Shown: piece after piece, positions 1,087 through 47,493 of the stretch
Layout of the letters: each line of letters opens with the position of its first letter
Numbering within the stretch: position 1 is the first letter of the stretch
Source of the DNA: Naegleria gruberi
Taxonomy: Eukaryota
Strand: one strand, 5' to 3'
Length of the DNA: 64,000 nucleotides
NCBI GenBank assembly: GCA_000004985.1
Contig: GG738902.1
Notes under the pieces: model-generated
The model's input: the letters and a program-made list of their open reading frames with translations, nothing else
The model's database searches: none
Told to the model about the DNA's origin: nothing
Position numbers and translations under genes: made by a program

Positions 1087-2268
1087 ATGGAACAATCGGA
1101 AGTGACCATTGCATACTTTAATAATGGCCTTGATGTGCTGAGTATGTTGAGTAGGTGGCAAGTACCAAGCTCGGAATCTGTCATGATTTTCATGTCAAGT
1201 GTTTTGTTTTGCATTGTGGCGACATTGGTTCTTCCTGGAAAGATGGTTCAGGGAGTTCCATTGAAGGATGGATCGAGGATTACATACAAGATTAATGGAT
1301 TATCGGTTGTGTTGCTTGGAACTTTATTTTATGGATTGTTGTGCTATTTCAATTTCCAAATTGGGAATGAGCTTATTTATTCATTGGTTTGTAAGAGTTT
1401 TGGACAATTGCTGGTTACAAGTTTGGTGTTTAGTTTTCTATTGACCAGTTTCTTAAATTTGAGATGTGTCCTTCAACCAGAGAGAAGTAATTACGTTTAT
1501 CCTAAATGGAATATTATCATGAATTTTTGGTGTGGTGTTGAATTGAATCCACACATTTTTGGATTTGAAATTAAGCAATTTTCGTATAGACCTGCATTCT
1601 TAATGATTGGAATTTTGAATTTAAGTTTTGCTTTCGAACAGTTTCGTCTCTATCAAACACTTTCTCAAAATTTCATAACTTTCCAAATCATTAGTTTCCT
1701 CTACTTGATTGATTGTTTCGTATTTGAAGAAGGACTCATTTTCATGTTTGATATTATTGAGGAAAACTTTGGATTCATGTTAGTTTTTGGTGATTACATG
1801 TGGACTCCATTTATTTTCACACTTCAAAATTTATATTTGATTAATGACTTTAATGTTAATCATTTCCAAACAGTTGCCAATATTTTGATATTCATTGTTG
1901 GTTATATCATCTTTAGAGGAGCCAATAATCAAAAAATTACCTTCCGTCAAGATCCAAAACAAGTTTGGCTTGGACTAATCGAACCTAAAGTATTGGAAAC
2001 TTCTCGTGATAGAAAGCTGCTCATTTCTGGATTCTGGGGAATGGCCAGAAAGATTAATTATTTAGGAGATATCCTAGTGGCCATCTCTCAAAGTTTCCCA
2101 TGTCTTCAATGTGGCCATGTCCTTCCATGGATGTATCCAATTTATTTAACACCACTTTTACTTCACAGAGCCATGAGAGATAATGAAAGATGTAAGGAAA
2201 AGTATGGAAAGTTTTGGGATGAATATTGTTCAAAGGTTAGGTGGGTTATGATTCCTGGAATTTATTAG
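1087..2268 (+). CDS. Sterol reductase family protein (ERG4/ERG24/DHCR7-like)
   Basis: 393-aa multi-TM ORF starting at ATG 1087. The C-terminal motifs LLISGFWGMARKINYLGDIL and LLLHRAMRDNERCKEKYGKFWDEYCSKVRWVMIPGIY match the ERG4/ERG24 sterol reductase signature. The N-terminal LPGK...GVPLKDGSRITYKINGL also fits. Confidence 0.8.
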   Translation: MEQSEVTIAYFNNGLDVLSMLSRWQVPSSESVMIFMSSVLFCIVATLVLPGKMVQGVPLKDGSRITYKINGLSVVLLGTLFYGLLCYFNFQIGNELIYSLVCKSFGQLLVTSLVFSFLLTSFLNLRCVLQPERSNYVYPKWNIIMNFWCGVELNPHIFGFEIKQFSYRPAFLMIGILNLSFAFEQFRLYQTLSQNFITFQIISFLYLIDCFVFEEGLIFMFDIIEENFGFMLVFGDYMWTPFIFTLQNLYLINDFNVNHFQTVANILIFIVGYIIFRGANNQKITFRQDPKQVWLGLIEPKVLETSRDRKLLISGFWGMARKINYLGDILVAISQSFPCLQCGHVLPWMYPIYLTPLLLHRAMRDNERCKEKYGKFWDEYCSKVRWVMIPGIY

Positions 2269-3278: not shown

Positions 3279-3284
3279 GGTAAG

Positions 3285-3357
3285 TGGAGATGCGGGGTAT
3301 CGATCCCCGTACCTCTTCCATGCTAAAGAAGCGCTCTACCATGTGAGCTACATCCCC
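3285..3357 (-). tRNA. tRNA-Ala (anticodon AGC), nuclear pol III type, 73 nt, no encoded CCA.
   Basis: The minus strand reads GGGGATGTAGCTCACATGGTAGAGCGCTTCTTTAGCATGGAAGAGGTACGGGGATCGATACCCCGCATCTCCA. Acceptor stem is 7 bp with the G3:U70 Ala identity pair. D-arm is GCTC/GAGC. Anticodon stem is CTTCT/GGAAG with loop TTAGCAT. T-arm is CGGGG/CCCCG. Discriminator is A. Confidence 0.9.
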
Positions 3358-10672: not shown

Positions 10673-11910
10673 TTATCTTTTAATGGGCGGGCGTGTCTGT
10701 AAATCACTGATTGAATAATCCTGGAATATTTTCAACATGCGCTCTCTATTCATCAATTTTGTAGTGTGTGTAATTATTAAATCTCCTCTTTTACAAACGA
10801 ATTCGAATAGATCATCCCCAATATAATCCTCATGAATATAGTGAATGTAAAGAAGAATCTCAGGATACTTTGAAAAAAAGGGTGCAACTTCATAATATTC
10901 ATAACATGTACTCACTGAGACATCATACCGTAAAGTTAATTCCAAATATTTCAATCTTTCGGTTCTAGGAATATAGCGGATACACTTTGGTACAATTGAA
11001 AGAATTTGAGGTAGGAATGTAGCTTGTTCCTTGACAAAGCGAAATGTTGAGGGATCTCTTTTCACACAATTCATTACAATTTCCTGATAATTTTCAATGG
11101 CAGGATCAACATATTGGAGGGTGAGAGGATCCAACTCAAGTGCTGGTATTACAATTTCTGGATTCTTTTTGAAAGCTGCAGTCATAAATTGAAGATTGTG
11201 TGGCAGTTTTCTAATGGCCAATAGAGCCATTTCTAAATCAGATTTGAATTCAAAATAAATGTATCTGAATAAATGTGGATTAATTTCTAGAGCCATCTTG
11301 GTTAATTCTCTATCTTTTCTCAATTCCAATTTGATAAATGAAAAGGAAGCTGGATTTAATCTCATATTAATCAATGATTCTTTTACAATTTGCATATCCT
11401 GAAGAGATTCATCAAATTTTTCAAATGAAACTCCATAATTGAGCATTTCCATCATTAATTCTCTATCATTTCTATAAGAATGATTCGTTGGAAAATGATG
11501 TGCTTCCCTCTTTTTTTATCCAATTTCAGAATTTTCAAAAGATATTCAATCGATGAATCGTGACTCAAGGCATAAATTACAAATTCTCTCATTTTAAACA
11601 ATGATTCATCTAAAAGTTTTGCAATTTTTTGTGGATTTCCTTTTCCACTTTGAATTATTTGCATCATGAGTTCTTTATCTTTTCTAAAAGATTTTGGAAT
11701 TAGCTCAAGACATTCTGGATCAATTTCAAATGCCATTAACATTGATTCTCTTGTTTCTTTCCAATTATCTGGGAAATATGAAAATTTTGGATTGATTTGT
11801 TGTCCACTTTTGGCAGCCATCTTGCCTAATTCAAAATCCTTTTCCAAATTATTGACATTTGGCACATATCCATATTTGCTAGCCACCAATTCAAGAATTT
11901 CTCTATCCAT
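10673..11910 (-). pseudogene. DUF4116-repeat protein gene interrupted by a frameshift near 11455-11520; either a pseudogene or a sequencing indel in a homopolymer.
   Basis: Two abutting ORFs (11455..11910 and 10673..11455) both carry the 24-26-aa repeats (IDPECLELIPKSFRKDKELMMQII and LEINPHLFRYIYFEFKSDLEMALLAI). The downstream frame stays open upstream through ...SYRNDRELMMEMLNYG, which is itself a repeat unit. No GT...AG intron is available there. An A7/T7 run lies at about 11510-11516. Confidence 0.55.
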
Positions 11911-12307: not shown

Positions 12308-12785
12308 CTTTTTTGTACGCTTCTATCTTTTTCAATGGAACAAGTTGAAATTACCTTCAATTATTTAAAATAGAATCTTTTTGTAGTATTATTTGAATAA
12401 CATTCTTAGCTAAGAACCATTAGATGACAAAAAACCAAAAACCGCCCAGCAAAACCGTTACACCATTATAAATGGTTTTTCAAAAAAAAACACCATCAAG
12501 AATTTATTCTCACCTGCAATGAAGTAACAACGACACACAGGTGCTAGTTTCAAATCCACATCAAATTACCTGTCTAGATGCCCTTTGCCAATTCTCTTTT
12601 ACCAAGAGCAAAGTGAAAGTCCCCAAAAGATGTTTCCACCATAATACAAAAACAAGTAACACATATTTTCATATATGAATAATATCTATTGCAAGATATT
12701 ATAATCACCATCAAACTATTTGACAAATAAAATTAGCCGGCTGGTTTGCCATCATAATATCCAAGTTGGATTTCAAACAACAAAA

Positions 12786-15700
12786 ATGTCCAAATTGCTT
12801 CTCCTACTATTACTTTCTCTTTTATTTGCAACAACAACAACACGAATAATCAGTGCCTACATCCTGCTACCACAACAATCAGCATCATCTTCACTTTATA
12901 ATAACCAAGATGATAATTCATCATCAACAACTATAATAACATCATCCTCATCATCATCAAATGTATTACTTTCTGCTACAGCAGCAGTGGTGGTGGAGAG
13001 GAATAAAACATTCTATATCAATGAAGCGAATGGCACACAAAGTGGTGATTGTTCCGAGCCTTCAAAAGCCTGCTCCTCCATCCTCTATTTAACTGGTTTG
13101 ATTTCACGATCGACCGATTATTTAACAAACAAGTTTTTAATCTATCTAATAGGAGATTGTATTAAATATGAACCAATAACATTCAGTACCATGACCTTGA
13201 CGAGTACTTTTATATTTCTCTCATACAATGATTCAAATAATACAAATAATAGTAGTGGCAGTACAGTTAATAGAGTGACATTGGCAAATAAGAGATGGTT
13301 AGCTCAATTTTCAAGTATGGGATTTGAAAATTTAATTGTGGACAAGATGGAAATATTTCCAGGAGATGGATTTTCATTTGTGAATTGTCTGGTTAGAGGG
13401 ATGAGTTTGAAGAGAGGATTTACTTGGATGATTGTGAAGAATACAGTGATTGAGGATTCAATTTTTGGAGATGATAGTGTCACGAGTTATATGAGGAATA
13501 AGGACGATAGACCAGTGATTGAAATTACACAGAGTAGAATTGTTCGTTCAAAGATGAATTTAGAATCAATTACTAATGTTATGAACTGTAATTTTACCGA
13601 ATCTAATATGACGATTAGCAATTCAGTATCTTCAACATTGCAGAATATTGCTGTTAACAATTCTAGAATTTTATTAAGAGTTGTCTTTTATATTAATGTG
13701 AATTATTTTGATTGCTCCAATAGTAGTTCATCATTTGCAATTGATGGAGCCAATGAGGTTAAAATTGTGAGGTTCAATTTTGAGAATTGTAATAATTATG
13801 GAGAAAGTACTCTCTTCTCTACTGTTAGGACTTTAAATATTGATCACATGAATTATATTAGAAATAAGGGTGCACTTACGTTTTTAGGAGTTTACCAAAC
13901 TAATATGGGATCATCTAATTTTATTGAGAATAGAAATGGTGCCATTCAAGTGGAAAATCATGGCGACTCACCAACATATTTTGTCGTGCAAGGTTCCAAG
14001 TTTTTGAGAAATAGCAGATTATCAAATGGTGGAGCTATTTATATGGATTCAGCTTTATCAAATTTCCATACCTATTCTAGTGTATTTGAAGATAATATGG
14101 CATTGAATGGAGGTGCTGTATATGTATTAGCATCCATTAGAAATACCTATACCAATACTGTTTTTAACAGAAATAAGGTTACAGACTGTGCTAAATGCGG
14201 TAATGGTGGAGCTCTTTATTCCAACACAAACTCTCTAGAGTGGAGATCCTCCAATTTTACAAATAATGTAGCCATTAAGGGAGGAGCTGTTTTTATTGAT
14301 AGAGTACCATCTATTACCTTTGAAACTCAGGATATTGTGTTTCAAAATAATGAAGCTCAATTTGGATCAGACTTTTTCTTTGAAAAGTATGAAGTTGACA
14401 AGTTCCCTGTTGATAAATATGCAAACTCTACTGCCAGCTCAATTATGAAGAGTTTCAAAGTACTCATGAATAATATTGAGATAGACTCAGGAAAGAACTT
14501 TGATGTCTATCCAGGTGAAACGATACAATTACAATATTCCTTTGAAGACATATTTGGAAATAGAATTGAATCTTCTCATAATCAACCTGTCATATCCTCT
14601 GATGCAAATATTACTCTATACACAGTTTTTACCTCAAATACGGACTTTAAGTTGCTCTTTGATTTGAATAATAAGGGAGAGATATCTACAACTGTTGAAT
14701 TGGTCATTGCCTATTCAGAATTTACTGTAATTAGTGAATTGCATCTCACCATTGCTCCATGTCCACAGTATCATCGTTTACAACAGGTCAATTTTAATGG
14801 ATACAAATGTGTCAAGCAAGATGTATTGCTTATTATCATTTCCTCTGTACTTTCATTTATTTCCCTGCTTATAATAATACCATTCATTTCATTCATTCTT
14901 TACAGGTTTGCACTCAAAAAGTTGTTTATATTCTACAAGAGAGAACGAGAGGAGAGAAGAATTGAAAAGCAATTGAAAGATTACCTCTTTAGAAATATTA
15001 ATGCCAATGATGAGAAACAAGGTCTCCTCAAATCTTTGACACATTCTAATATGATAATTCCAATCAGTGACATTCAAATTGTTTCCAAAATAGGAGAAGG
15101 ATCGAATGGTGTAGTATATTTGGGGCGATGGAAACAAACTGACGTTGCCCTCAAAAGTATCAAACATGATTCTACCGATATTGATATTGAAAATCAATTA
15201 GAAGAATTTGAACATGAAGCTTCCTTATTAGCAAGCTTACGTCATCCCAATGTCATTTCATTTTATGGTATTAGTTTCGGTCTCAATGTACAATACATGG
15301 TAGTTGAATATTCAGTTAATGGAAGTTTGGACAAGGCAATTCATCAATCCAAGATTAAGAAGAAGGTTCTCAGTTTTAGAGATAAGATTAATATTGTTCT
15401 TGGAATTTCAAAAGGTTTAAATTACTTGCATTCATTGAGACCACAAATGATTGTTCACAGGTATGTATTTGAATAGTCTTATTGAGATTAATACTGAAAT
15501 TATCAAATAATTTTAGAGATTTGAAACCTGGAAATATTCTATTGGATAGTAATTTTGAGCCAAAGGTAACAGATTTTGGAATGAGTCGATTTATTGGAAC
15601 TGAAAATTCATCCATGACCATGAATGTTGGTACATTACGATATTGTGCACCTGAGATATTCAACAATGACAAACACGATGCCAATCACATGGTCGATGTC

Positions 15701-16096
15701 TACTCATTCTCAATGATTATGTATGAATTATTATTTGAGGATGCTCCCTTCTCTGAAAATACTAAAAAGATGAAGAATAGAAGTTCAGGAATCTCTACAT
15801 CTGACTCCTCATCCGTAACAAGTGGAAGTGGTTCAAATAATATTAATGAAATGTACAGTATTCCAGTTCGAGTAGTGAGAGGAGAACGCCCAAGCATTCC
15901 CTTCTCGAATGAAAATGAATTGGAAATGTGGGCTGATGAGTTTATTACTGATAATGCCTCTCTAAACTACAAAGTACAAGCTCTTGAACAATATATTGAA
16001 TTGATGAAACAGTGTTGGGCTCAAGCTCCAAATCAAAGACCATCCTTTGGTCAAATTTCGGAAACCCTTTTGAATATTAGCATTTCTTTCAGATAA
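12786..16096 (+). CDS. Receptor-like TKL protein kinase. Exons 12786..15460 and 15517..16096, intron 15461..15516 (GTATGT...TTTTAG, 56 nt). Signal peptide, beta-helix-like ectodomain, one TM, kinase domain.
   Basis: Starts MSKLLLLLLLSLLFA. The ectodomain has recurring NGGAIY, NGGAVYV, GNGGALYS and KGGAVFID motifs. TM segment is VLLIIISSVLSFISLLIIIPFISFILY. Kinase motifs are IGEGSNGVVYLG...ALK and, across the splice, HR|DLKPGNILL...DFGMSR. The ORF-track stop after HRYVFE lies in the intron. Confidence 0.8.
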
Positions 16097-19133: not shown

Positions 19134-19970
19134 TTATTGAACAAATGGTTCAAAACCAAACTGAGTCATTCCCTTGTGCATAATATTTAATTCTATTGTC
19201 ACCTCTCCTCCAACACTTTCAGTCCTGGTTACCTCTCTTCCTTCACCTTTACAAACCATTGTCGAGTCGAAATATTCTGGGGCCACTCCCTTTACGGAAC
19301 CAATCCATTTCTGTATTAAGGATGTACTTTGAGGTTTAAACAGTTTAACTTTCAGACTGTGTTTTCCAGCTCCGATTGGTACTTGACACCATCCATATCC
19401 GATAATCTTTTGCTTTCCAGTTCCTTCTTGAACAACAAGACACAACTTTGGCCATCCATAAGGATTTGTACTTCTAAAACAAATCTCCAGAGGGAAATTC
19501 CAAATATACTTTGAGTTGAATCCTCTTGGCCTCATTGCAACCTGTGTCACACCACTTTCCAAGCTTACTCCTTCTCCAGTTGTTCTTGCAATTTCCCAAT
19601 CTTGCCCATAAACAAATTGAAAACTACACGAAATATTCATATTGCCAGGAAATTCTGCATGACTTATTACACCATTCACAATCACATAAAACGATGAAGT
19701 GGCATTATTATTTTGAACTGATGTATAATTATTATTCATGGTTGTATTATTGAGGGTGATATTTGTTGTATTCAAATTGATGCTATTCATCGGATCAAGA
19801 TTATTTACACTTGTTGATAAAATACTACTCGCTGAGGTTTCTATAATGTTGTTTGCTGCTTCAATATTTTCCGATATTATTGGCTGTTTATTTGGTCTGC
19901 CGAGCATACCTGCCGTACTTGGTCGTGAACTAACACCTGCTGGCTTTGAGCTTGATGGTCTATTGAGCAT
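19134..19970 (-). CDS. B9-domain protein (B9D1/MKS1-like ciliary transition-zone component) with an N/S/T-rich N-terminal extension. Further upstream exons are possible.
   Basis: FYVIVNGVISHAEFPG...FVYGQDWE...IWNFPLEICFRSTNPYGWPKL...GYGWCQVP..GKH...PEYFDS..V.KGEGREVTRTESVGGEV aligns along its length with B9D1 (VNGQ.ESA.FP; FVYGQDW; VWNFPIDV.FKSTNPYGWPQ; GEGREVTRV). Confidence 0.8.
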   Translation of the reverse strand: MLNRPSSSKPAGVSSRPSTAGMLGRPNKQPIISENIEAANNIIETSASSILSTSVNNLDPMNSINLNTTNITLNNTTMNNNYTSVQNNNATSSFYVIVNGVISHAEFPGNMNISCSFQFVYGQDWEIARTTGEGVSLESGVTQVAMRPRGFNSKYIWNFPLEICFRSTNPYGWPKLCLVVQEGTGKQKIIGYGWCQVPIGAGKHSLKVKLFKPQSTSLIQKWIGSVKGVAPEYFDSTMVCKGEGREVTRTESVGGEVTIELNIMHKGMTQFGFEPFVQ

Positions 19971-21909: not shown

Positions 21910-22896
21910 TTATTCAGTCTTCTTTACATCAGTCTTCTTCCTCTTATAACTTTGAATATAAAAGTTCAAGAACAAGGCCAAGAAGGCAGCAACAGTCAAG
22001 TCAACCAAGAAGAATGGATAATAATTACCAGCACAAGTTTGGTTATCTCCATACTTGAACCACAACCAAACCTTTGGAACAACCAAATCAAAAACAAATT
22101 GAATAATTTGCATTCTGGTAATCCATGGCTTGATAACATTCAAACAACCTGGAGTAAAGATTGGAGAATTCTTAACAGTACAAACATAAAAGTAGAAATA
22201 CATGATAACGTGAACACCAGCATTCAAAGTTGAAGGGAACCACATCATTTGTGACTTTTCCAAAATGACATACCAACACAATAATAAGGTAATCATGTGA
22301 TGGAAGGTATGCAAGAAAGTCAAACTCTTACACTTGATCATTAAAAAGACAGTATCTAACAATTCATAATATTTGGACAAGTAGAAAATGTACAACCAGA
22401 AAGGAACTGCACCCTTTCCCATTCTATTAGGAACATCACAAGTTAAGGCAGAGAGTTTTTCCATAAAGCTAGCTTCTGGAATTTCATTAACAACTTCAAC
22501 AGCTTCACCAACAAATCCCAAAACCATGATCAAACTCAACACACTGAGGAAAATATTGTGGAATTTAATGAACATTTCCAAGAGTGGATGTTTCATTGGT
22601 GTATTATTTCTAACCTTTTTCATATACAGTGGAAGTAAATAAAGAGACAATCCATAACCAACAACAGCTGTTGCTGGATAGATCCAGTGAGATATTGGTG
22701 CTTCATTGTAAATGTACTTGAAATCGTGAATGTACTGGGACATTCCTTCACCATTAGGAATGAATTGTAAAAGTCTATCGATGAACACCATACTGATTCG
22801 AGATGATGATGAATATAAGAGTGGGTGTTGAGTGTGTTGGTTTTTTTCAAAAGTTTGAGCATACAGTCTTTGCACCAACCAGCCTTTATGGTTCAA
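21910..22896 (-). CDS. ELO family fatty-acid elongase.
   Basis: Motifs SKYYELLDTVFLMIKCK (KxxExxDT), FLHTFHHMIT (HxxHH), NAGVHVIMYFYFY (HxxMYxYY) and TRMQIIQFV (TxxQxxQ). Multiple TM helices. Start codon uncertain. Confidence 0.8.
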   Translation of the reverse strand: MNHKGWLVQRLYAQTFEKNQHTQHPLLYSSSSRISMVFIDRLLQFIPNGEGMSQYIHDFKYIYNEAPISHWIYPATAVVGYGLSLYLLPLYMKKVRNNTPMKHPLLEMFIKFHNIFLSVLSLIMVLGFVGEAVEVVNEIPEASFMEKLSALTCDVPNRMGKGAVPFWLYIFYLSKYYELLDTVFLMIKCKSLTFLHTFHHMITLLLCWYVILEKSQMMWFPSTLNAGVHVIMYFYFYVCTVKNSPIFTPGCLNVIKPWITRMQIIQFVFDLVVPKVWLWFKYGDNQTCAGNYYPFFLVDLTVAAFLALFLNFYIQSYKRKKTDVKKTE

Positions 22897-26568: not shown

Positions 26569-26986
26569 TGATATAGTCATTCACATGTGGACATGAAATT
26601 TAATAAAAATTCAAGAAAACAATCTTTTTCTCAATGTTGGAATACATGAAAATTAAGAACTTGTAAGTCCCAATTAATGTAAATTCCTTGTCTGATTTGG
26701 CGAGATATGTTACAATGGAAAAATTCATTAAAATTCATCTGCGTCTCACTTTACTGGTCAGAACTTCTCCCGCCAAATCGTAAACGAGTAACCAATCATA
26801 ACTGTTACGCTTGAAAAATTTACTTTAGAAAAAAAAAACTCAATTCTCTCCCCTCTACACTCTTTCAGTTGTTGTTGCAACAAATTTTTATCGTAGTGAG
26901 GGTTTTTATATATTTTGTATAGTTCATCATCCAAATCCAAATCATCATCAACCACCTTACTTACTATATTATTTATTAAATCGAGA

Positions 26987-29900
26987 ATGGGTTGCGGAAA
27001 TTCAAAATCAACACTCGGTGTAGTTGAGACCGTCGAAGAAAAACCAAAACAACAAGCCACTGTCAATAACACCACTAATACTACCACTGCTGTCATGACA
27101 GGAACACTTGAACCAGAGGCACCAAAGAAGAAGGATGGTTTCTGTTACTTCTTTGGTCTTGACAGTCAAACTAAGGAAAACCTCACTGAAGGGAATAAGG
27201 ATATGAAGGAACTACTTGGAGGAAAAGGTGCTAACTTGTGCGAAATGTGCAATTTAGGTATTAATGTTCCTCCTGGATTTACTGTTTCTACAGAAGCCTG
27301 TGAACACTTTAGCCAGCTTCATAACCTTGCTACTTCAGCAGGAGAAGAAGGAGCTGAAAAAAAGAATCTCACTTTACCAGAAAACATTCAAACACAAGTC
27401 GACGAATATCTCAAAAAATTGGAACAAGCAACTGGAAAGAAATTTACCGATTCATATGAAAATGATACAGATAAGGTTCTCTTAATTTCTGTGAGATCAG
27501 GAGCTGCCATTTCAATGCCTGGAATGATGGACACTATTCTTAACCTTGGTATTTGTGACAAGAATATTACTCAACTCGTTAAAAACTTTGGTGGAAATGA
27601 AAAATTCGCTTGGGATTCATATCGTAGTCTCGTTCAAATGTTCGGTGAAGTTGTCATGTCAGTCAAGCCAGAACATTTCGAAGACAATATCAAAAAGCAA
27701 AAGGAAAAGAGAGGTATTACTCATGATTCTGAATTGAATTTGGAAGAAATTCAACAAATCGTTCAAGATCACAAACTTACTATTTTCGAACAAACTGGAG
27801 GTGAAGACTTCCCACAAGATGTTCGTCAACAATTGTACAGAGCTATTATTGCTGTCTTTAACTCATGGCACAATAAGCGTGCTGTGCAATATAGAAAGAT
27901 TCACAACATTACTGGTCTTAAGGGAACTGCTGTAAATATTCAATCCATGGTCTTTGGTAATGTTGATGAACGTTCATGTTCTGGTGTCTGTTTCAGTAGA
28001 AATCCTTCAACAGGTGAAAATCTATTCTATGGTGAATATATGATTCAAGCACAAGGTGAAGCTATTGTTGCTGGTCAAAGAACTCCAGAAAAGATTGAAA
28101 CCTTGGCTACTAACTTCCCAGAATGTAACACTAGTTTGAAGGAAATCAGTACCAAATTGGAAAAGCACTTTAAGGATGTCCAAGATATGGAATTCACAAT
28201 TGAACAAAATACTCTCTATATGTTGCAATGCAGAAATGGTAAAAAGACAATTCAAGCTTCTCTCAAGATTTACTGTGACATGATAGATGAAGGTCTTATC
28301 AATGAAAGAGAAGCCATCTCAAAGATTGATGCTACTCAACTCAACCAAATGCTCCATCCATTCTTGGATGATTCTGAAAAGGCTCATCACGAACCTTTGG
28401 CAACTGGTTTACCAGCAAGTCCTGGTGCTGTAGTTGGTAGAATTGCTTTCACCAGTGAACAAGCCATTAAAATGTCTGAAACCAGAAAGGAAGATGGTGA
28501 TGTCATCTTGGTCAGAGAACAAACAAGCACTGAAGATTTGGCTGGTATGCATGCTTCTCAAGGTTTCTTGACTACTAATGGTGGTCTTACTTCTCATGCT
28601 GCTGTTGTTTCTCGTCAACAAGGTAAATGCTGTGTAAGTGGATGTAGCTTGCTTTATGTCACTAGTGAAGAATCTTGTACAATTAATGGAACCCTCTTTA
28701 ATCAAGGTGATATTATTACTATTGATGGTTCAACTGGTAATGTCTACGGTAAGGCTCTCAAGACAACTAGACCAGGTATTTCTCAACCTGACTTTGTCAG
28801 AATTATGGATATTGAAAAGAAGTACAGAACTATGAGTGTCTATGCTAACGCTGATACATCTGTCGATGCTCATAAGGCTGTTGAATTCGGTGCTGAAGGT
28901 ATTGGATTGTGTAGAACTGAGCACATGTTCTTTGAAAAGACAAGAATAGTTGACATGAGAAGAATGATTGTTGCCTCCACCACAGAAAAGAGACAAGAAG
29001 CTATTAATGTTCTCAAAGATTATCAACGTTCTGATTTCCTTTCCCTCTTCCATGCTATGGAAGGAAAGAAGGTCACTATTAGATTGTTAGATCCTCCACT
29101 TCACGAATTTTTACCAGAAGATCCACAAGAAATTGAAGAATTGGCTTTGGCTCTTGGTGAATCTGTTAAGGATGTTACCCTTACTGTCTCTCAACTCAAG
29201 GAAAAGAATCCAATGTTGGGTCATCGTGGTTGTAGATTGGGTATTACCTTCCCCGAGATTACTCAAATGCAAGTTGAAGCCATTTTTGAAGCTGCTATTG
29301 ATGCTACTCATAAGGGCGAAGTTGTTGTTGATATTATGGTTCCATTAGTTCAATCTGTTCAAGAACTTGTCAACCAAAAGGAAATTATTGAAAAAGTTGC
29401 TTCATCATTGTTTGCCAAGCATGAAGACAGAAAATATCTCATTCATTACAGAGTTGGTTGTATGATTGAAACTCCAAGAGCTGTTTTGATGGCTAAAGAA
29501 CTTGCTGGTGTTGCTGATTTCTTCAGTATTGGAAGTAATGACTTGACTCAAATGACCTTTGGTTTCAGTAGAGACGACAGTGGTAAATTCCTTAAATATT
29601 ATCTCGAACGTGACTTGATTGAAAATGATCCATTCGAAGTTTTGGATACAGAAGGTGTTGGAAAGATTATTCAACTCACTGTCCAAACTGGTAGAGAAGC
29701 AAAGAATGGTTTGACTGTTGGTTTGTGCGGTGAACATGGTGGTGAATCTCACTCTGTTAAATTCTTGTACCAATGCGGTCTTTCATATGTCAGTTGTTCA
29801 CCTTATAGAATTCCAATCGCTAGACTTTCTGCTGCTCAAGAATCTGTCAAGAATTGGAGAAATGTTATTTGTGTTAATGGTGGTCCAGGATCAGGAAAGG

Positions 29901-30412
29901 GCACACAATGTGCCAAACTTGTTGAAAAGTATGGTTTTATCCATTATAGTACAGGTGATTTGTTGAGAGCTGAAGCTGCTAAGGATACAGAACAGGGTAG
30001 AATGATCTCGTCATACATTAAGGAAGGTAAGATTGTGCCTGGTGCTGTTACTCTTGGTTTGTTAAGAAATGCTATTTTGAACCATCCTAAAAAGGATGCT
30101 ACGTTCTTGATCGATGGCTTCCCAAGAGAAATGCAACAAGCTGTTGACTTTGAAGCTCATGTCTGTAAATTCAAGTTTGTCCTCTTCTTTGATTGTCCAG
30201 AAGAAATTTTGGAACAAAGATTGTTAGAAAGAGGTAAGACGAGTGGTAGATCTGATGACAATGCCGAAAGTATTAAGAAGAGATTCAAGACCTATAGCGA
30301 CCAAACAATGCCAGTTATTGGATACTTTAAGAAGACTGATAGAGTCAAGACAATTGATAGTTCAAAGACACAAGAAGAAGTGTTTGCTGAAGTATGCAAA
30401 TTATTTGATTAA
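26987..30412 (+). CDS. Pyruvate,phosphate dikinase fused in-frame to a C-terminal adenylate kinase / UMP-CMP kinase-like domain (from about 29860). N-terminal MGCGNSKS dual-acylation motif.
   Basis: PPDK hallmarks run the length of the protein (LLGGKGANLCEM, GINVPPGFTV, GGLTSHAAVVSRQQGKCCVSG, GAEGIGLCRTEHMFF, SIGSNDLTQMTFG, LCGEHGG, SYVSCSPYRIPIARLSAAQ). There is then no stop before NGGPGSGKGTQC...GDLLRAE...IDGFPRE...RLLERGKTSGRSDDN, which is the P-loop/LID of adenylate kinase. Gly2, Cys3 and Ser6 follow ATG 26987. Confidence 0.85.
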   Translation: MGCGNSKSTLGVVETVEEKPKQQATVNNTTNTTTAVMTGTLEPEAPKKKDGFCYFFGLDSQTKENLTEGNKDMKELLGGKGANLCEMCNLGINVPPGFTVSTEACEHFSQLHNLATSAGEEGAEKKNLTLPENIQTQVDEYLKKLEQATGKKFTDSYENDTDKVLLISVRSGAAISMPGMMDTILNLGICDKNITQLVKNFGGNEKFAWDSYRSLVQMFGEVVMSVKPEHFEDNIKKQKEKRGITHDSELNLEEIQQIVQDHKLTIFEQTGGEDFPQDVRQQLYRAIIAVFNSWHNKRAVQYRKIHNITGLKGTAVNIQSMVFGNVDERSCSGVCFSRNPSTGENLFYGEYMIQAQGEAIVAGQRTPEKIETLATNFPECNTSLKEISTKLEKHFKDVQDMEFTIEQNTLYMLQCRNGKKTIQASLKIYCDMIDEGLINEREAISKIDATQLNQMLHPFLDDSEKAHHEPLATGLPASPGAVVGRIAFTSEQAIKMSETRKEDGDVILVREQTSTEDLAGMHASQGFLTTNGGLTSHAAVVSRQQGKCCVSGCSLLYVTSEESCTINGTLFNQGDIITIDGSTGNVYGKALKTTRPGISQPDFVRIMDIEKKYRTMSVYANADTSVDAHKAVEFGAEGIGLCRTEHMFFEKTRIVDMRRMIVASTTEKRQEAINVLKDYQRSDFLSLFHAMEGKKVTIRLLDPPLHEFLPEDPQEIEELALALGESVKDVTLTVSQLKEKNPMLGHRGCRLGITFPEITQMQVEAIFEAAIDATHKGEVVVDIMVPLVQSVQELVNQKEIIEKVASSLFAKHEDRKYLIHYRVGCMIETPRAVLMAKELAGVADFFSIGSNDLTQMTFGFSRDDSGKFLKYYLERDLIENDPFEVLDTEGVGKIIQLTVQTGREAKNGLTVGLCGEHGGESHSVKFLYQCGLSYVSCSPYRIPIARLSAAQESVKNWRNVICVNGGPGSGKGTQCAKLVEKYGFIHYSTGDLLRAEAAKDTEQGRMISSYIKEGKIVPGAVTLGLLRNAILNHPKKDATFLIDGFPREMQQAVDFEAHVCKFKFVLFFDCPEEILEQRLLERGKTSGRSDDNAESIKKRFKTYSDQTMPVIGYFKKTDRVKTIDSSKTQEEVFAEVCKLFD

Positions 30413-38441: not shown

Positions 38442-39026
38442 ATGCCAAAACGTAAAGCTGCTGCCCCATCATCCACACAAACTCTAGAACCGTCATCAAA
38501 TAAAAAGAAAAAATCGGAAGAGAAGGTTGAATTGCTGAATAAAATATTGAATGCACTCGAGGAAAATAATGCATTACAAAAAGCCTTGCTCCGACATCTA
38601 GGAGGAAAAGTTCCTGCTCTTCCTTCATCATCAACAGCCAATTCAAATTCAACAAATAGGACTGCAGCAGTTAATTCAGTTTGTGAAAGTAGTGAAAGTA
38701 GTGATGAAGATGAAATAGTTAGTGATGATGTTGCAATATCATCAAAACGTTCGACTATTAAAACAACTTGTCCATGGACAGGTTCAAATCTGCAAGAACC
38801 TGTTCAATCTAAGAAATGTAAACACGTATATGAAAAGGCAGTGGCTTTCGCAAAATTGAGAACTGGAGGGGGTTATTTTGAATGTCCTATTATTGGTTGT
38901 AAGGAATGCAGAATTACTATAGTAGACCTTGTGGAAAGTCCATCCCTTGCTTTACAAATCAGAAAGGAAATTAAGAGAAAAGAAGAAGAAAAGAGAAAAA
39001 AGGCAGAAAGTTCTGAGGATTGTTGA
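38442..39026 (+). CDS. NSE2/MMS21-like SP-RING protein (SMC5/6 SUMO-ligase subunit homologue).
   Basis: TCPWTGSNLQEPVQSKKCKHVYEKAVAFAKL...YFECPIIGCKE matches the NSMCE2 SP-RING (CPIT...PV..K.CGHTYE..AI...CP..GC). Confidence 0.65.
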   Translation: MPKRKAAAPSSTQTLEPSSNKKKKSEEKVELLNKILNALEENNALQKALLRHLGGKVPALPSSSTANSNSTNRTAAVNSVCESSESSDEDEIVSDDVAISSKRSTIKTTCPWTGSNLQEPVQSKKCKHVYEKAVAFAKLRTGGGYFECPIIGCKECRITIVDLVESPSLALQIRKEIKRKEEEKRKKAESSEDC

Positions 39027-41575: not shown

Positions 41576-43992
41576 TTACTCAAACTCCCTTGTAAATATT
41601 CCAGAAAGATCTTGTTCTGATAAAAAGGAACTACTCTCCCAAAATAGTGGATTCTCAAATCCTGTAATACCAACAGACGAGTAGTCTTCTGGTTGAGTAG
41701 GTGTAACTTCAATATTCAGTTGTGTATTTAGTGGAATGTCAATAGGAGTAGGTTGTACACTCACAACACGTCTAACTCTTATCAGAGACAAGTATTGTTC
41801 CATGTCTGCAAGAAGGTCCTTAAAGAAAAGCTCAACAAACTTGTATCGTTTTTTCATCAAATTAAAAGCTCTCATATCCTTCTCAAGAATATCGAAATAA
41901 TCAATTCCGTTATATCTGAAATCTGTACTTTGGCTTGAAATTAGTGTTTTGACAATTTGTAAATGCACATTGGTTGCCTTGGCTACACAGACAAGAGTTT
42001 CTATAGGGAAGAGTGGAAACCAAGCATGTTGCGTTATTTCTGTAATTTCCAAAGCTGCCTTCTCCATAATATCCCTAACAGTTGGATTGTGTGATTTAGA
42101 TAGAATTGAAATTCTCAGTGAGTTTGCAATTAGAGTAAATATTGGATCAACTAGTTCTTCATACTCAGGTCCTACAATTCACTTGTTCAGATATTTGTTT
42201 TATAATGAAACTTACCATATGAAAAACATGCAAGAGCAGGACTCTTTGTTGGAGTGTCTATCAATCCTTTGGCCACCTTTTTGATATTCTCCACACACAT
42301 TTGGACAACACTCCAAATTTCAAAACAATTTTCACTATTAACTTCTCTAGTCACTACACCGATCCATTCCTCTGGAAATTTATCCATTGTAAAGAAGCTA
42401 TAAATATCAGGCAATCTTCTGAGGAATTCTTTCAAGTCCAAACGATTCAAATCATCTCCCAATACATTGTTAAAATAAAATACAAGATTTTCCAAATTTC
42501 TCTCACAGTCTGTCATAGTAGCTCTCTTCTCCTCGCCACTGAGTTGCGTCTTGACATAGTACTGGAGAATTTGCATGTAGAATTTTGCATTTTCGTATCT
42601 TCCAACCCAGCCTTCATACGAGGCCAAATTACCATAAGTTGCTGCAATATGATAGCTTTGAATTTGGTCAAACATTTTAGAAAGTGCCTTTTTGGCTCTT
42701 TGAGCTGTCTTTTCTGCTAGCTCAGCGAGTCCATATCTACATTCACACAATGCTCTCACCGATAAGAAGAGAGGGAACATTTCCTTCTTGTTGCTCTTTT
42801 CTCCTTCGATATCATTTGGTGTTGTAATGTAATTTTCCAATTCTTCCTTGCTCACCAATGGACATCCATCACATGCAATATCAAAATAAAAGTCAATCAC
42901 ATTTCTCTTACTGAGATGACCAACTTCTTCCACATTATCACTATCGGAATCACTATTTTTTTCTGCAATATTATTGTTGGTGGTTGAATGGTATGGTTTG
43001 AATTTTGGATCATTCGAAACTACACCATCCTTTGGTTTGAATGAGGTAACTCCTTTCTTTTTCTTTCTCTTCTTTTTTTCCTCAGTTCCCTTGATTGCAT
43101 TCCTCTTTGATTCTCTATAAATACATTCCACAGATCGTTGTGTACATGCTGTACAACATGGCAATTTCTTATCTGTAATATTATGGTGAATTTTAAAATC
43201 AACAAATAATAAAATACCTACCACTATTAAGGATTTAAAATTAAAATGTTATTTAGATTATTTACATACCATTTTCTATTAAATAGTTAATAATATGAAG
43301 ATTAAAAACACATACCGATGCTGCTTTCTACAAGGCTCACAGGCAATTGGAAAGAATTCAGTATTATCGTCTGTTGCAGCTGTTTGATTTGGTGAGCCAG
43401 TCTTTTCGTTACCTTCTGAACCATTACTACTGCTACTACTCGATTGGCCATTAATAACATTAGTTGATAAATTAATATTTTGATTTGGAATAAATCCTCT
43501 ATTATTATTTACAAAATTCAAATATTCTTGTTGTCTTTGTTGGAAAAGCAATCCGAAACTGTTTGGATTCATTCCTCCCAATAATTGTTGCTGCATTAAT
43601 ATTTGTTGAAGACTTGGATTGTGATTATTCATCATTAATTGTTGATTTACAGGATTCATTGCAGGTTGTTGATTATTTACAGAAGAAATCGATGGATCTT
43701 GAACAGTTTCCCAACCAGAAGCAGAATTTCCTAAAGACTTTCCGAGTGATGATAAAAATCCACCATTATTTCCACTACTTGTATTATCATTACCTAAATT
43801 TGAAAGGAAATTCATTGATGATCCACTATTACTATTATTCATCATCATCATATTATTCATCAATACATTATTCATCATCAACTGGTGCTGAGACGTTGCC
43901 GAATAGCTTTGATTATTACTATTCATTTCAAACGTTTGTTTGGTGTTGTTATTTGTTGGTTCCGAGTTGTCTTGATGATTTAACGGACGCAT
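41576..43992 (-). CDS. Zn(II)2Cys6 (Gal4-type) transcription-factor-like protein. Minus-strand exons 43992..43316, 43275..43270 (6 nt), 43223..43222 (2 nt), 43172..42216 and 42171..41576. Introns are 40, 46, 49 and 44 nt.
   Basis: The spliced junction reads ...ACEPCRKQH R|K C|DKKLPCCTACTQRSVECIY, giving CX2CX6CX6CX2CX6C. Donors are GTATGT, GTATGT, GTAGGT and GTAAGT; acceptors are TAATAG, TAATAG, TTACAG and TTGTAG. The C-terminal half (LQIVKTL...GIDYFDILEKD) is paralogous to the gene at 44562..47128. Confidence 0.7.
43222..43223 (-). other. 2-nt microexon (TG) completing a Cys codon within the Zn2Cys6 gene.
   Basis: Flanked by CCTTAATAG| and |GTAGGTATTTT. A paralogous TG microexon is present at 45316..45317. 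Confidence 0.6.
43270..43275 (-). other. 6-nt microexon (AAAATG) within the Zn2Cys6 gene.
   Basis: Flanked by TTTAATAG| and |GTATGTAAA. Needed to complete the codons CGA-AAA-TG. Confidence 0.55.
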
Positions 43993-44561: not shown

Positions 44562-47128
44562 ATGAATTCGTCATCAACATCACCACAACAGGCTCCTCCT
44601 CAAGGCTTTGGAAGTTTTCCTTCCTCCCCTAACAATAACATGTATACACAGCCTCAGCAACAACAATATTCTTCCTATAATAATAGTTTAAATAGTAGTA
44701 ATAGTACTAATAACAACATGATGATGATGAATAGTGTCCACCATCATCAGCCTCTTCCTTCATCTCCTTATAATCAACATCATCATGTGGCATCTCAATC
44801 AAACACCTCACAACAGCAACAGTATTATGATAATAACAATAATTATCAGGAATATAATAGACCACCGAATAATAATAACATGAATCATTCATCATCGATG
44901 AATAATGGTACGATGATTTCACTTCCTAGTCAAAATTCCTCCTATCAGACGTCACCATCACAATATGGCAACAGTAATAACAATAACTTTATTTATAATA
45001 TTCCACCACCATCCACACCACAGCAACCACCACCTCAACAAAATTATCATAATGGAATGCAAGGAATGAGTAGTAGTTCATATCAATTTGCGAATAGTAA
45101 TGGAATGCACAATAGAATGAATAATCAAAATGTGTCACCACCCATGAATCAACAACAAAATCTCGAATCAAGTCCAGAAGAAAATTCGTCATCACCAAAT
45201 GCTGAGCAATTGGGAAATTCGGATTTTCATCCCATCGCCTGTATAAATTGCAGAAAGCAACACAAACAATGGTAAGTTTAGTTATATTTGGAATTAAATC
45301 GATAACATTTTATAGTGGTAAGTATTAAATAAGAGAAATTGATTATTTAATGTTTCGGATATATAATTTAAACCTATCAGATAAGAAATTACCAAGTTGT
45401 CAACGATGTATTTCGAAAGGTATAACTTGTGAATATAAAACGCCTAGAAGAATGAGATATCCAAATCAGTCGAAACAAAAACAACAGCAACAGTCAACTG
45501 AGGAACAGCAACAATCAGAACCAAAGAAGAAGAAAAAGAAAACCGACTCGAAAGATAACCTAACACCAAAATCAAACTCTCCTCTCGATCCAGAAAATGT
45601 TTGTGCTCCAAATACAACTCTCACTAGCAGATTCCCTCAAACTCTCTCAAAAAAGAATATTATTGATATTTATTATAGCATGATATGCGATCACTTTATA
45701 TTTATTGAAAAACCAGTATTGGAAAAGTATATTCTTTCCAAGAGTAATAGTGAAGATGTGGATGATTCAGAATTACCACTCAAGAAGGAAATGCAGACAT
45801 TCTTCTTCTCTGTGACAGCACTAGTGGAACAACGTATGGGAATGGGAGATTTATCTGAAAAATCAGCAAAGAAGGCTAGAGATTGTCTTTCTAAACTTTT
45901 TGATGAAATGAATAACTTTGTAGTTGCCTGTTCGTATGCAAATTTGGGATCATATGAGATTGGATCAGGACGAGTCAAACTATCCAGGTTCTATTTCCAT
46001 AATGCCAAGTTTTACTTTGAAAGTTTGGACGATTCTGAAAAGTCAAGGTTATCAGAGCATGAAAAGGCTCTCCAAAAATACTTGACATCAGTGGAAATTG
46101 TAAATGCAGATAATGATCTAGGAATTTCAGCCATGATACATGACATGCCAAAAGTTTTTCATTTCACCACAGGACATCACTTACCTCAAGAAATTGTTAA
46201 AGCAACTCAACAAGAGGTCAGTCCTTCGAATTGTTTGGACTATCTCAAGATTGTGGAAATGATTGCCTCGTACTTGAACAAGTATTTCAGAGGTATGGCC
46301 ACTAAAACTAGAGGAGAAAAGGAAATGGAAATGTATGACAAGGGTAGTAATCTCTGCCAAGGTTTACTAATGAACGGATTACGTGTAGGTGTCTTGACTA
46401 AGGCAGGGTATGGCAAGGATCTTATTGAAGAGTCTTCTTTGAGAATTACGTATGCGTCCGAGAGTGAATTTTTTCCATTCCTTCCTGTTATTGTAATTCC
46501 ACACGTTGCTCTCGCTGCCCGTATTCACTTACAAATTGTAAAAAAGATTGAAAATGGTACCAGACAAAATCATCAGAAAGGGCTCACTTTCCAAAATACC
46601 GTTGGACCTATTGATTATTTTGATATTCTGGCAAAAGATTACAGATCACTCATTATTCTCTCTAAAAGATTTAAGAGAGTGTCGGTATGTTACGGTTCTC
46701 TCCTTGATGAAATTAAAGAGATTTTAGGTAGGAGAGTTGAAGCTCAGCAAAACAACGACACCACCTCGACAAATAACTCTAATACTGTTACTACCCCAAT
46801 TGCAGATGATGCACTCTTACAGCCACTTTCCTTAGACTCTTCCAGCCTGCCTCCACTGTCCTTCCTTCTAGGTTCTATGAATGATAATCCTTCACTACCT
46901 CAATCTTCAAGCTCTCAAAAATCAACCCTTGATGGATATGCTTCCAACAATTTACAACAAAGCATTTTCAATTCAATAATTCAATCTCCAATCAAATCAC
47001 CCTCACAACAACAAGAGTTGTACTTTGCTGATCCATTCTTTACACACGAAGATTTACAACAAATATTTTCTCCACATACGTATGGCGATTTTGAGGATGT
47101 ATCAGAATATAGTTTTAATGTGAAATAA
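44562..47128 (+). CDS. Zn(II)2Cys6 transcription-factor-like paralogue. Exons 44562..45271, 45316..45317 (2-nt microexon) and 45381..47128.
   Basis: Exon 1 ends ...FHPIACINCRKQHKQ + tg. Intron 1 is 45272..45315 (GTAAGT...TTTTATAG). Microexon is TG. Intron 2 is 45318..45380 (GTAAGT...CTATCAG). Exon 3 starts ATAAGAAATTACCAAGTTGT. The spliced protein reads ACINCRKQHKQCDKKLPSCQRCISKGITCEY. The N-terminus is N/Q-rich; the C-terminus is homologous to the minus-strand paralogue. Confidence 0.7.
45316..45317 (+). other. 2-nt microexon (TG).
   Basis: TTTTATAG|TG|GTAAGTATTAAAT. Without it the zinc-cluster frame cannot be joined. Confidence 0.6.
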
Positions 47129-47154: not shown

Positions 47155-47493
47155 CTATTGTTCTTCCACGTATTTGGCTACATATTCAGGATAGCATGGC
47201 AATCTATCTCCTAGCATAACGTGGTGATTACCAGTTTGAGTTTCAGCTGTTGGTTCAAAGACTGGTTCCAAAGGCTTTTCCACAAATACTTCGTGATCTT
47301 TCTTAACTGGTAATTCTTCCTTCTTTTCTTCAACAACTGGTGTTTCTGTAATTGTTTCTTCCTTCTTTTCTTCAACTGGTGCTTCTACAACTTGAGTAGT
47401 TTCCACAGAAATTGGTGGTACTTGTTCAATTGAACAAATAAATGGAATTGTTTCTTGAATTAACTTTTTACAATTTTCAACTTGATAATTCAA
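47155..47493 (-). CDS. Acidic E/P/V-rich ORF (112 aa). Either a separate small gene or a C-terminal extension of the upstream ankyrin/coiled-coil gene via an unresolved frameshift or splice.
   Basis: It overlaps the stop of 47477..48148 by 17 nt in a different frame. No canonical intron or single-base homopolymer change joins them. Confidence 0.25.
   Translation of the reverse strand: MNYQVENCKKLIQETIPFICSIEQVPPISVETTQVVEAPVEEKKEETITETPVVEEKKEELPVKKDHEVFVEKPLEPVFEPTAETQTGNHHVMLGDRLPCYPEYVAKYVEEQ

Follow-up and report, generated by a model that had tools for sequence, protein, structure and literature searches.

The B9-domain gene described here is very probably the B9D1 gene of Naegleria gruberi, encoding a putative member of the MKS1-B9D2-B9D1 subcomplex in the MKS module of the ciliary transition zone. 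It lies in the window, the whole 64,000-nucleotide stretch of DNA that was analyzed, and its open reading frame (ORF) corresponds to NAEGRDRAFT_52666 (EFC39164, XP_002671908, UniProt D2VVU0, JGI ID 52666) of N. gruberi NEG-M, which UniRef labels 'B9 domain-containing protein 1'. Naegleria B9D1 is already annotated and named, so the B9 gene itself is a known gene and offers nothing new; the reference list of PMC4819266 places publication of the N. gruberi genome in 2010. The coordinates of the B9 gene and of the other features discussed are given in Table 1.

Table 1. Features of the window, with positions counted from its first letter.
Feature	Position	Strand	Description
ERG4/ERG24 sterol reductase	1087-2268	+	E=1.6e-87; exact match EFC39093
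B9D1 orthologue CDS	19134..19970	-	single exon, ATG start, 278 aa + stop
B9-C2 domain, residues 96-264	19179..19685	-	Pfam PF07162, predicted C2-like beta-sandwich
N-terminal extension, residues 1-93	19692..19970	-	Ser/Asn/Thr-rich, low-complexity, predicted disordered
Met22 ATG	19905..19907	-	start in GenBank model (257 aa)
Met1 ATG	19968-19970	-	upstream start, 278-aa ORF
ELO (GNS1/SUR4) fatty-acid elongase	21910-22896	-	E=4.5e-57
PPDK + C-terminal adenylate kinase	ORF 26915-30412, first ATG 26987	+	1141 aa; exact match EFC39103
NSE2/MMS21-type SP-RING protein (zf-Nse)	38442-39026	+	E=7.8e-14; exact match EFC39106
Zn2Cys6 gene A	42187..43992	-	556 aa as modelled; Zn_clus 31.7 bits after splicing
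Gene A exons	43992-43316, 43275-43270, 43223-43222, 43172-42187	-	second exon 6 nt (AAAATG), third exon 2 nt (TG)
Gene A introns		-	40, 46, 49 nt
Zn2Cys6 gene B	44562..47128	+	819 aa as modelled; Zn_clus 38.2 bits after splicing
Gene B exons	44562-45271, 45316-45317, 45381-47128	+	second exon 2 nt (TG)
Gene B introns		+	44, 63 nt

The initial annotation, made from the sequence alone, had proposed protein comparison as a check on the source organism, and this comparison placed the B9 gene and other ORFs in N. gruberi, an amoeboflagellate. Nine ORFs of the window were exact matches to annotated N. gruberi NEG-M proteins encoded on one 305,921-bp scaffold; besides B9, these were EFC39093, EFC39098 (carbonic anhydrase), EFC39099, EFC39103, EFC39104, EFC39106, EFC39170, and EFC39171. 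N. gruberi belongs to the Heterolobosea within the Discoba (Eukaryota), and Naegleria and fungi are about as distant as eukaryotes get. The earlier description of an AT-rich flagellated unicellular eukaryote fits both the GC content of the window (33.5%) and the amoeboflagellate to which the ORFs belong, but its further suggestion that this was a zoosporic fungus or some other relative of fungi among the protists, which it put forward as inference only, was wrong. That the window derives from such an organism, with its Zn2Cys6 factors as a sign of fungal ancestry, is extremely improbable. Two genes do encode clusters of the Pfam class 'Fungal Zn(2)-Cys(6)', an ERG4/ERG24 sterol reductase is present, and the base composition and small introns would suit some early-branching fungi. 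A fungal origin was nevertheless rejected on the exact matches to N. gruberi proteins, and the next-best B9 matches were also from heteroloboseans. The heterolobosean-wide conservation of these genes likewise argues against a fungal contaminant scaffold. The initial annotation was misled by the Zn2Cys6 cluster.

ORFs of at least 150 aa occupied 78% of the window. Its intergenic DNA had been called extremely AT-rich, which was accurate for a stretch at about 48.3-49.1 kb with 15-17% GC, the sole stretch so low; overall, GC was 29.4% outside the large ORFs and 34.7% inside them. The earlier calls of a sterol reductase, an ELO elongase, a PPDK, and an NSE2 protein were all confirmed (Table 1). 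The PPDK ORF also carries a fused C-terminal adenylate kinase domain that had not been pointed out before, and no description of a PPDK-adenylate kinase fusion in Naegleria was found in the literature searched.

The Pfam B9-C2 profile (PF07162) matched the B9 ORF with E=6.7e-43 and a score of 147 bits, where the gathering cutoff is 27 bits, and profile positions 1-166 of 166 were covered. The B9-C2 assignment is therefore secure at profile level, the level that had been set beforehand as the test of a 'clear B9 domain'. Because the domain is unbroken, the coding region of the B9 gene has no intron. The closest database relative (P0001, the GenBank protein of NAEGRDRAFT_52666) was 100% identical to the window ORF over its 257 aa. 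A scan for bacterial-type promoters and terminators near the gene returned 9 sites against 6.0 +/- 2.6 expected, which is chance level, and such a scan has no meaning for a eukaryotic gene.

The GenBank model and the window ORF differ in their start codons. In alignment A1, which was built from the first database matches, conservation of the N-terminus M[LI]NRPSS.K...RP[ST] extended to the orthologues from N. fowleri and N. lovaniensis and to P0004, and a near-identical protein of 279 aa from a separate assembly (P0022) uses the same Met1 as its start. The upstream ATG at Met1 is therefore likelier to be the true start than that at Met22, and the GenBank B9D1 model probably begins 21 codons too late. 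The 93-residue N-terminal extension was found, with variable length, in the Naegleria and Willaertia orthologues of this alignment, and a Ser/Asn/Thr-rich extension was missing in Acrasis and in the more distant B9D1 proteins.

B9 domains occur in three paralogues. B9D1 is known as MKS9 in human and MKSR-1 in C. elegans, and B9D2 as human MKS10 or Stumpy; in MKS1, which is longer, the B9 domain is located close to the C-terminus. After the N. gruberi protein itself, the next-best B9 matches came from N. fowleri, N. lovaniensis, Willaertia magna, and Acrasis kona. A profile search with alignment A1 recovered 21 proteins, and all named ones were B9D1, including those of Plasmodiophora, the brittle star Amphiura, Monodelphis (opossum), and a dolichopodid fly, and KEGG K16744; neither B9D2 nor MKS1 was among the 21, and MKS1 came up in none of the searches made. 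In BLASTP, the Naegleria ORF scored 117 bits against Monodelphis B9D1 (37% identity, E=4e-37) and 57 bits against human B9D2 (NP_085055.2; 29% identity, E=9e-15, partial alignment), and mammalian B9D1 and B9D2 scored 65 bits against each other. The Naegleria ORF is thus nearer to animal B9D1 than animal B9D1 is to animal B9D2, as would be expected if it were an orthologue. Two motifs common to the Naegleria ORF and B9D1, STNPYGWP and GEGREVTR, were invariant or nearly so in alignment A1. On these sequence comparisons, the B9 gene of the window is a B9D1 orthologue, which narrows the earlier reading of a B9D1/MKS1-type domain to the B9D1 type.

There is only a very small chance that the Naegleria protein is instead the B9D2 or the MKS1 paralogue, or a lone B9 protein that is undifferentiated. 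One Pfam model matches all three paralogues, our pairwise comparisons covered B9D1 and B9D2, and the N-terminal extension may loosely resemble the longer N-terminus of MKS1; B9D2 and MKS1 belong to the same Pfam family as the Naegleria ORF and presumably have a C2-like fold in common with it. Against this, the profile search recovered only proteins named B9D1, the B9D1 score was about twice the B9D2 score and also exceeded the B9D1-B9D2 score within mammals, the extension is disordered and of low complexity with no conserved domain, and a separate MKS1 has been reported in Naegleria (PMC4819266). As a B9D1, the Naegleria protein resembles the animal proteins in being small, with a lone B9-C2 domain that spans the full Pfam profile and no other domains. 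It differs from the animal proteins recovered (183-224 aa), which are without the 93-residue disordered tail, and its host organism builds flagella transiently and de novo.

An AlphaFold2 model computed on alignment A1 had a mean pLDDT of 64 and a pTM of 0.55, which is moderate confidence overall. Residues 8-89 had pLDDT below 50 and were regarded as disordered, and residues 94-266 formed a beta-sandwich with two short helices. Foldseek comparison of the model with the PDB gave only C2 domains as top matches, from Trichomonas C2 proteins, p120RasGAP, PI3K, myoferlin, dysferlin, and the centriolar protein CEP120 (E about 2e-4 to 1e-3, target TM-scores 0.5-0.6, identity 7-14%). Sequence searches of the PDB with protein and profile queries matched no chain and found no B9 structure. 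The fold of Naegleria B9D1 is thus predicted to be a C2-like beta-sandwich, and its resemblance to classical C2 domains (CEP120, the C2A domains of dysferlin and myoferlin, PI3K C2, and Trichomonas) is at the level of the fold and not of family membership. The C2-only matches agree with the proposal of Zhang and Aravind that B9 is a divergent C2 domain with predicted membrane association (PMC3495828).

PMC7550698 describes MKS1, B9D2, and B9D1 as a trimeric B9 complex required for the diffusion barrier to ciliary membrane proteins. B9D1 is also among six core transition-zone proteins; in every supergroup, ciliated lineages possess this core, and non-ciliated lineages are without it (PMC4092220). 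The initial annotation took the B9 domain to imply a cilium or flagellum with a transition zone, and the transition zone of Naegleria flagella is indeed conserved and contains Y-shaped links (PMC4819266). Basal-body genes and the MKS genes MKS1 and MKS3 are induced as Naegleria amoebae differentiate (PMC4819266). A later Naegleria preprint (PMC10802493) does not mention the B9 gene or JGI ID 52666, and Naegleria entries were not found in the supplementary texts of Barker et al. 2014.

Naegleria amoebae are without centrioles and cilia. From what is known of the family and of Naegleria, we infer that B9D1 would be made during differentiation and would join B9D2 and MKS1 in a membrane gate; its place in the complex, its localization to the transition zone, its barrier function, and its induction are read across from this literature. 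The putative C2-like beta-sandwich (residues about 94-266) would dock with B9D2 and, through B9D2, with MKS1. Together with membrane partners (TMEM67/MKS3, tectonic, and CC2D2A), B9D1 would be situated in the Y-link region, which lies between the axonemal doublets and the flagellar membrane, and there it would contribute to a diffusion barrier that keeps the composition of the flagellar membrane apart from that of the cell body. The protein would be required only for the de novo assembly of two basal bodies and flagella by amoebae, and the gene would therefore be expected to be switched on in differentiation. The disordered 93-residue tail, specific to Naegleria and Willaertia, could provide a lineage-specific added function.

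A true B9D1 orthologue might also have acquired a different role in amoebae, unrelated to flagella, such as a role at membranes or in centrosome-independent trafficking. Cilia are absent for most of the life of Naegleria, new interactions could be mediated by the disordered tail of this lineage, and Toxoplasma keeps B9D1 alone, for which Barker et al. speculate on an adapted function (PMC4092220). We consider such repurposing unlikely to a high degree, as only ciliated organisms have transition-zone proteins (PMC4092220), and flagellum-forming heteroloboseans, Naegleria and Willaertia among them, show high conservation of the B9 domain. Moreover, Y-links are present in Naegleria, and other genes of the MKS module are induced there in differentiation (PMC4819266). 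A function of B9D1 at the flagellar transition zone is the reading that we prefer.

The initial annotation also reported two Gal4-type Zn2Cys6 factors. These are real, but their clusters pass the Pfam Zn_clus profile only after splicing. The motif was defined as C-x2-C-x6-C-x5-12-C-x2-C-x6-9-C together with a Zn_clus score above the cutoff of 21 bits. A regular expression for the six cysteines, applied to the unspliced six-frame translation of the window, found no complete motif in any frame; this was a false negative, because introns split the cluster. Two ORFs contained the second half-clusters KKLPSCQRCISKGITCEY and KKLPCCTACTQRSVECIY, and the ORFs upstream of them ended in the first half-clusters CINCRKQHKQ and CEPCRKQHR. 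Joining the halves through five introns in total, with donors GTAAGT, GTATGT, or GTAGGT and acceptors TAG or CAG, gave the spliced products CINCRKQHKQCDKKLPSCQRCISKGITC and CEPCRKQHRKCDKKLPCCTACTQRSVEC, both of which pass Zn_clus. The mini-introns with GTAAGT or GTATGT donors that had been noticed earlier measured 40-63 nt, and the N-rich low-complexity proteins were borne out by the first exons of the Zn2Cys6 genes, with 18.6-19% Asn.

In the resulting models, both genes contain an exon of two nucleotides, TG. With exon boundaries marked by slashes, the modelled junctions read ...CATCG/AAAATG/TG/ATAAGAAATTGCC... in gene A and ...CACAAACAATG/TG/ATAAGAAATTACC... in gene B. Leaving out the TG exon deprives the zinc cluster of the codon for its third cysteine and breaks the reading frame. 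Splice models that avoid the 2-nt exon, by using one intron only, by moving the donor or acceptor, or by read-through, were rejected because they met stop codons or lost Cys3. The spliced peptide of gene A, CEPCRKQHRKCDKKLPCC..., agrees with the family consensus and with an N. fowleri gene that has no intron in the cluster. The GenBank model of gene B (P0048, 558 aa) begins downstream of the zinc cluster. We consider it likely, though far from assured, that genes A and B need a constitutive 2-nt exon between tiny introns and that existing annotations remove or damage the DNA-binding domain of some family members.

Good support for the 2-nt exon comes from comparison of sequences across species, and not from transcripts. 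N. fowleri has an orthologue of gene B (P0049, at locus L001) in which a 12-nt exon, CAATGCGATAAG, encoding QCDK, lies between two introns. With this exon, P0049 gives CINCRKMHKQCDKKLPSC, the same as the N. gruberi gene B model, with the stretch HKQCDKKLPSC; the N. fowleri annotation omits the exon, and Cys3 is lost. The adjoining Zn_clus gene of N. fowleri has its cluster in a single exon (CINCRKQHRKCSKHLPSC...ECVYRESKR), which agrees with spliced gene A. Part or all of the DNA-binding domain is thus probably missing from the N. gruberi and N. fowleri models of this gene because annotators were unable to place the 2-nt and 12-nt exons; damaged domains were checked in the DNA in two cases, and 13 more are suspected.

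Two metagenomic relatives (L002 and L003) have a single intron, at tgY g/GTAWGT...AG/ac aag aaa. From this lone intron it follows that a phase-1 intron in the Asp codon is probably ancestral, and in genes A and B of N. gruberi a further intron would lie 2 nt upstream. Within the 21-nt stretch cat-NNN-NNN-tgY-gat-aag-aaa (numbered 1-21), introns were found after nt 5, 6, 11, 13, and 18, and these five positions are spread over different Naegleria paralogues and species. Recent gene conversion between genes A and B was rejected as an explanation of their common structure, because the introns flanking the 2-nt exon were no more alike than expected from shuffled controls (z ranged from -1.5 to +1.3).

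To what extent the Zn2Cys6 family is fungal was judged from its members. When the last exon of gene B served as the query, an exhaustive HMMER search gave 126 cluster representatives. The complete cluster motif was present in 50 of them, with the consensus [FH]PIAC..CR..H[KR][KR]CD[KR]KLPSC..C..RG..C.Y, which is the form of the spliced A and B peptides, and 13 family gene models start abruptly at the second half of the cluster. Among the 79 members scanned, 40 matched Zn_clus and none matched the Fungal_trans middle-homology region (PF04082 or PF11951), which was also not found in genes A and B. Ten members sampled over the range of E-values were from N. gruberi, N. fowleri, N. lovaniensis, or Willaertia, or were environmental sequences. 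Genes A and B share with fungal Gal4-type factors a C-x2-C-x6-C-x6-C-x2-C-x6-C cluster that passes Zn_clus. Unlike these factors, they lack Fungal_trans, have the cluster split by introns, and carry a C-terminal domain whose relatives are only Naegleria, Willaertia, and environmental sequences. On this sequence evidence, they belong to a heterolobosean-only family whose likeness to fungal factors is confined to the DNA-binding cluster. The absence of the middle-homology domain, and the fact that all sampled named members are from Naegleria or Willaertia, also argue against a fungal source of the window, as does the occurrence of Zn clusters outside fungi, where Shelest (2017) described them as patchy and of unresolved origin (PMC5415576). 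UniRef labels several family members 'Zn(2)-C6 fungal-type domain-containing protein', and Zn2Cys6 proteins of Naegleria are therefore already on database record; no paper combining 'Naegleria' and 'Zn2Cys6' was found in the literature searched.

A 1-nt exon has been reported in Arabidopsis, and the shortest constitutive exon known earlier was 6 nt (PMC4674806). Naegleria was not mentioned in the microexon and recursive-splicing literature that we searched. If true, the 2-nt exon would rank with the shortest known exons that are constitutive, and would be an example of near-recursive splicing in nature; if transcripts confirm it, it would be relevant to the limits of splicing and to intron gain or sliding. 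The window also shows that a flagellated protist can be inferred in raw sequence from a B9 domain, and that Zn2Cys6 clusters are an unsafe marker of fungal ancestry. Naegleria B9D1 fits the established picture in which the MKS module of the ciliary gate goes back to the last eukaryotic common ancestor.

The B9D1 gene (NAEGRDRAFT_52666) was examined for its start codon. When translation was taken from the upstream ATG at 19968-19970, the first ~20 residues of the protein were conserved in other Naegleria species. Sequence comparison thus supports this ATG as the probable start in preference to the annotated one. Coordinates of most features are listed in the table.

Features of the window and of related loci (L001, N. 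fowleri; L002 and L003, metagenomic relatives of the Zn2Cys6 family)
Feature	Position	Strand	Remark
tRNA-Ala(AGC), single gene	3284-3357	-	ARAGORN and Rfam
EGF-repeat protein, 1564 aa	5896-10590	+	
DUF4116 repeats, three ORFs	10673-11910; 56076-57596	-; +	
Protein kinase domain, over two adjoining ORFs	12720-16096	+	Pkinase profile
B9D1 N-terminal segment	19905-19970	-	annotated start, Met22
Pyruvate phosphate dikinase (PPDK) + adenylate kinase	26987-30412	+	single ORF
Predicted 2-nt exon (TG) + 6-nt exon region, gene A	43173-43315	-	flanked by introns
Predicted 2-nt exon (TG) region, gene B	45272-45380	+	flanked by introns
21-nt stretch, N. gruberi	43321-43164 (gene A); 45261-45389 (gene B)		
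21-nt stretch, other loci	L001 4701-4794; L002 1170-1230; L003 1480-1530		
Model-error site, gene B	45350-47128	+	
Model-error site, N. fowleri orthologue	L001 4690-4975		
DOCK-type C2 (PF14429) + RasGEF (PF00617) protein, very large	58863-63989	-	runs past window end

The 1165-aa PPDK ORF carried a C-terminal ADK domain (residues 988-1141, E=1.7e-48), and the database label of the fusion protein, EFC39103, is PPDK alone. The fusion is biochemically sensible because AMP is made or used by PPDK; a literature search found no description of it. The protein begins with MGCGNSK, which we take to resemble a myristoylation/palmitoylation motif.

Among the remaining genes, the DUF4116 and EGF-repeat genes may represent lineage-expanded repeat families. 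Pkinase profile positions 2-122 stopped at 15476 and positions 121-259 started at 15482, which points to either a short intron or a change of frame where the two ORFs meet. The pairing of DOCK-type C2 and RasGEF is also annotated in N. fowleri (2443 aa, L001 1-286) near the Zn2Cys6 genes, and local synteny is therefore partly conserved. ARAGORN and Rfam detected no RNA gene in the window besides tRNA-Ala. The highest AT content by far anywhere in the window was found at ~48300-49100, where GC was only 15-20% over roughly 0.8-1.3 kb between two minus-strand ORFs. Imperfect tandem repeats of 18-42 nt were located just upstream, at 47939-48114, within ORF 47477-48148 (-).

A 2-nt exon, TG, appears necessary in both Zn2Cys6 genes, A and B, for the zinc cluster to have its third cysteine (Cys3) and its Asp. 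In the predicted gene models this exon sits between two introns of 44-63 nt, and gene A has a further predicted 6-nt exon, AAAATG. Comparison with orthologues and family members backed the peptides expected from this splicing.

The GenBank model of gene B (P0048, 558 aa) starts 3' of the zinc cluster and is without the DNA-binding domain, while that of its N. fowleri orthologue (FDP41_010721, P0049) leaves out a 12-nt exon, CAATGCGATAAG, with loss of Cys3. Because 13 other family models begin at the second half-cluster, mis-annotation appears widespread. Within the 21-nt stretch cat-NNN-NNN-tgY-gat-aag-aaa, introns occurred at five positions (after nt 5, 6, 11, 13 and 18) among Naegleria paralogues and species, and one N. 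fowleri gene had no intron there. The stretch is a possible hotspot at which introns are gained or slide.
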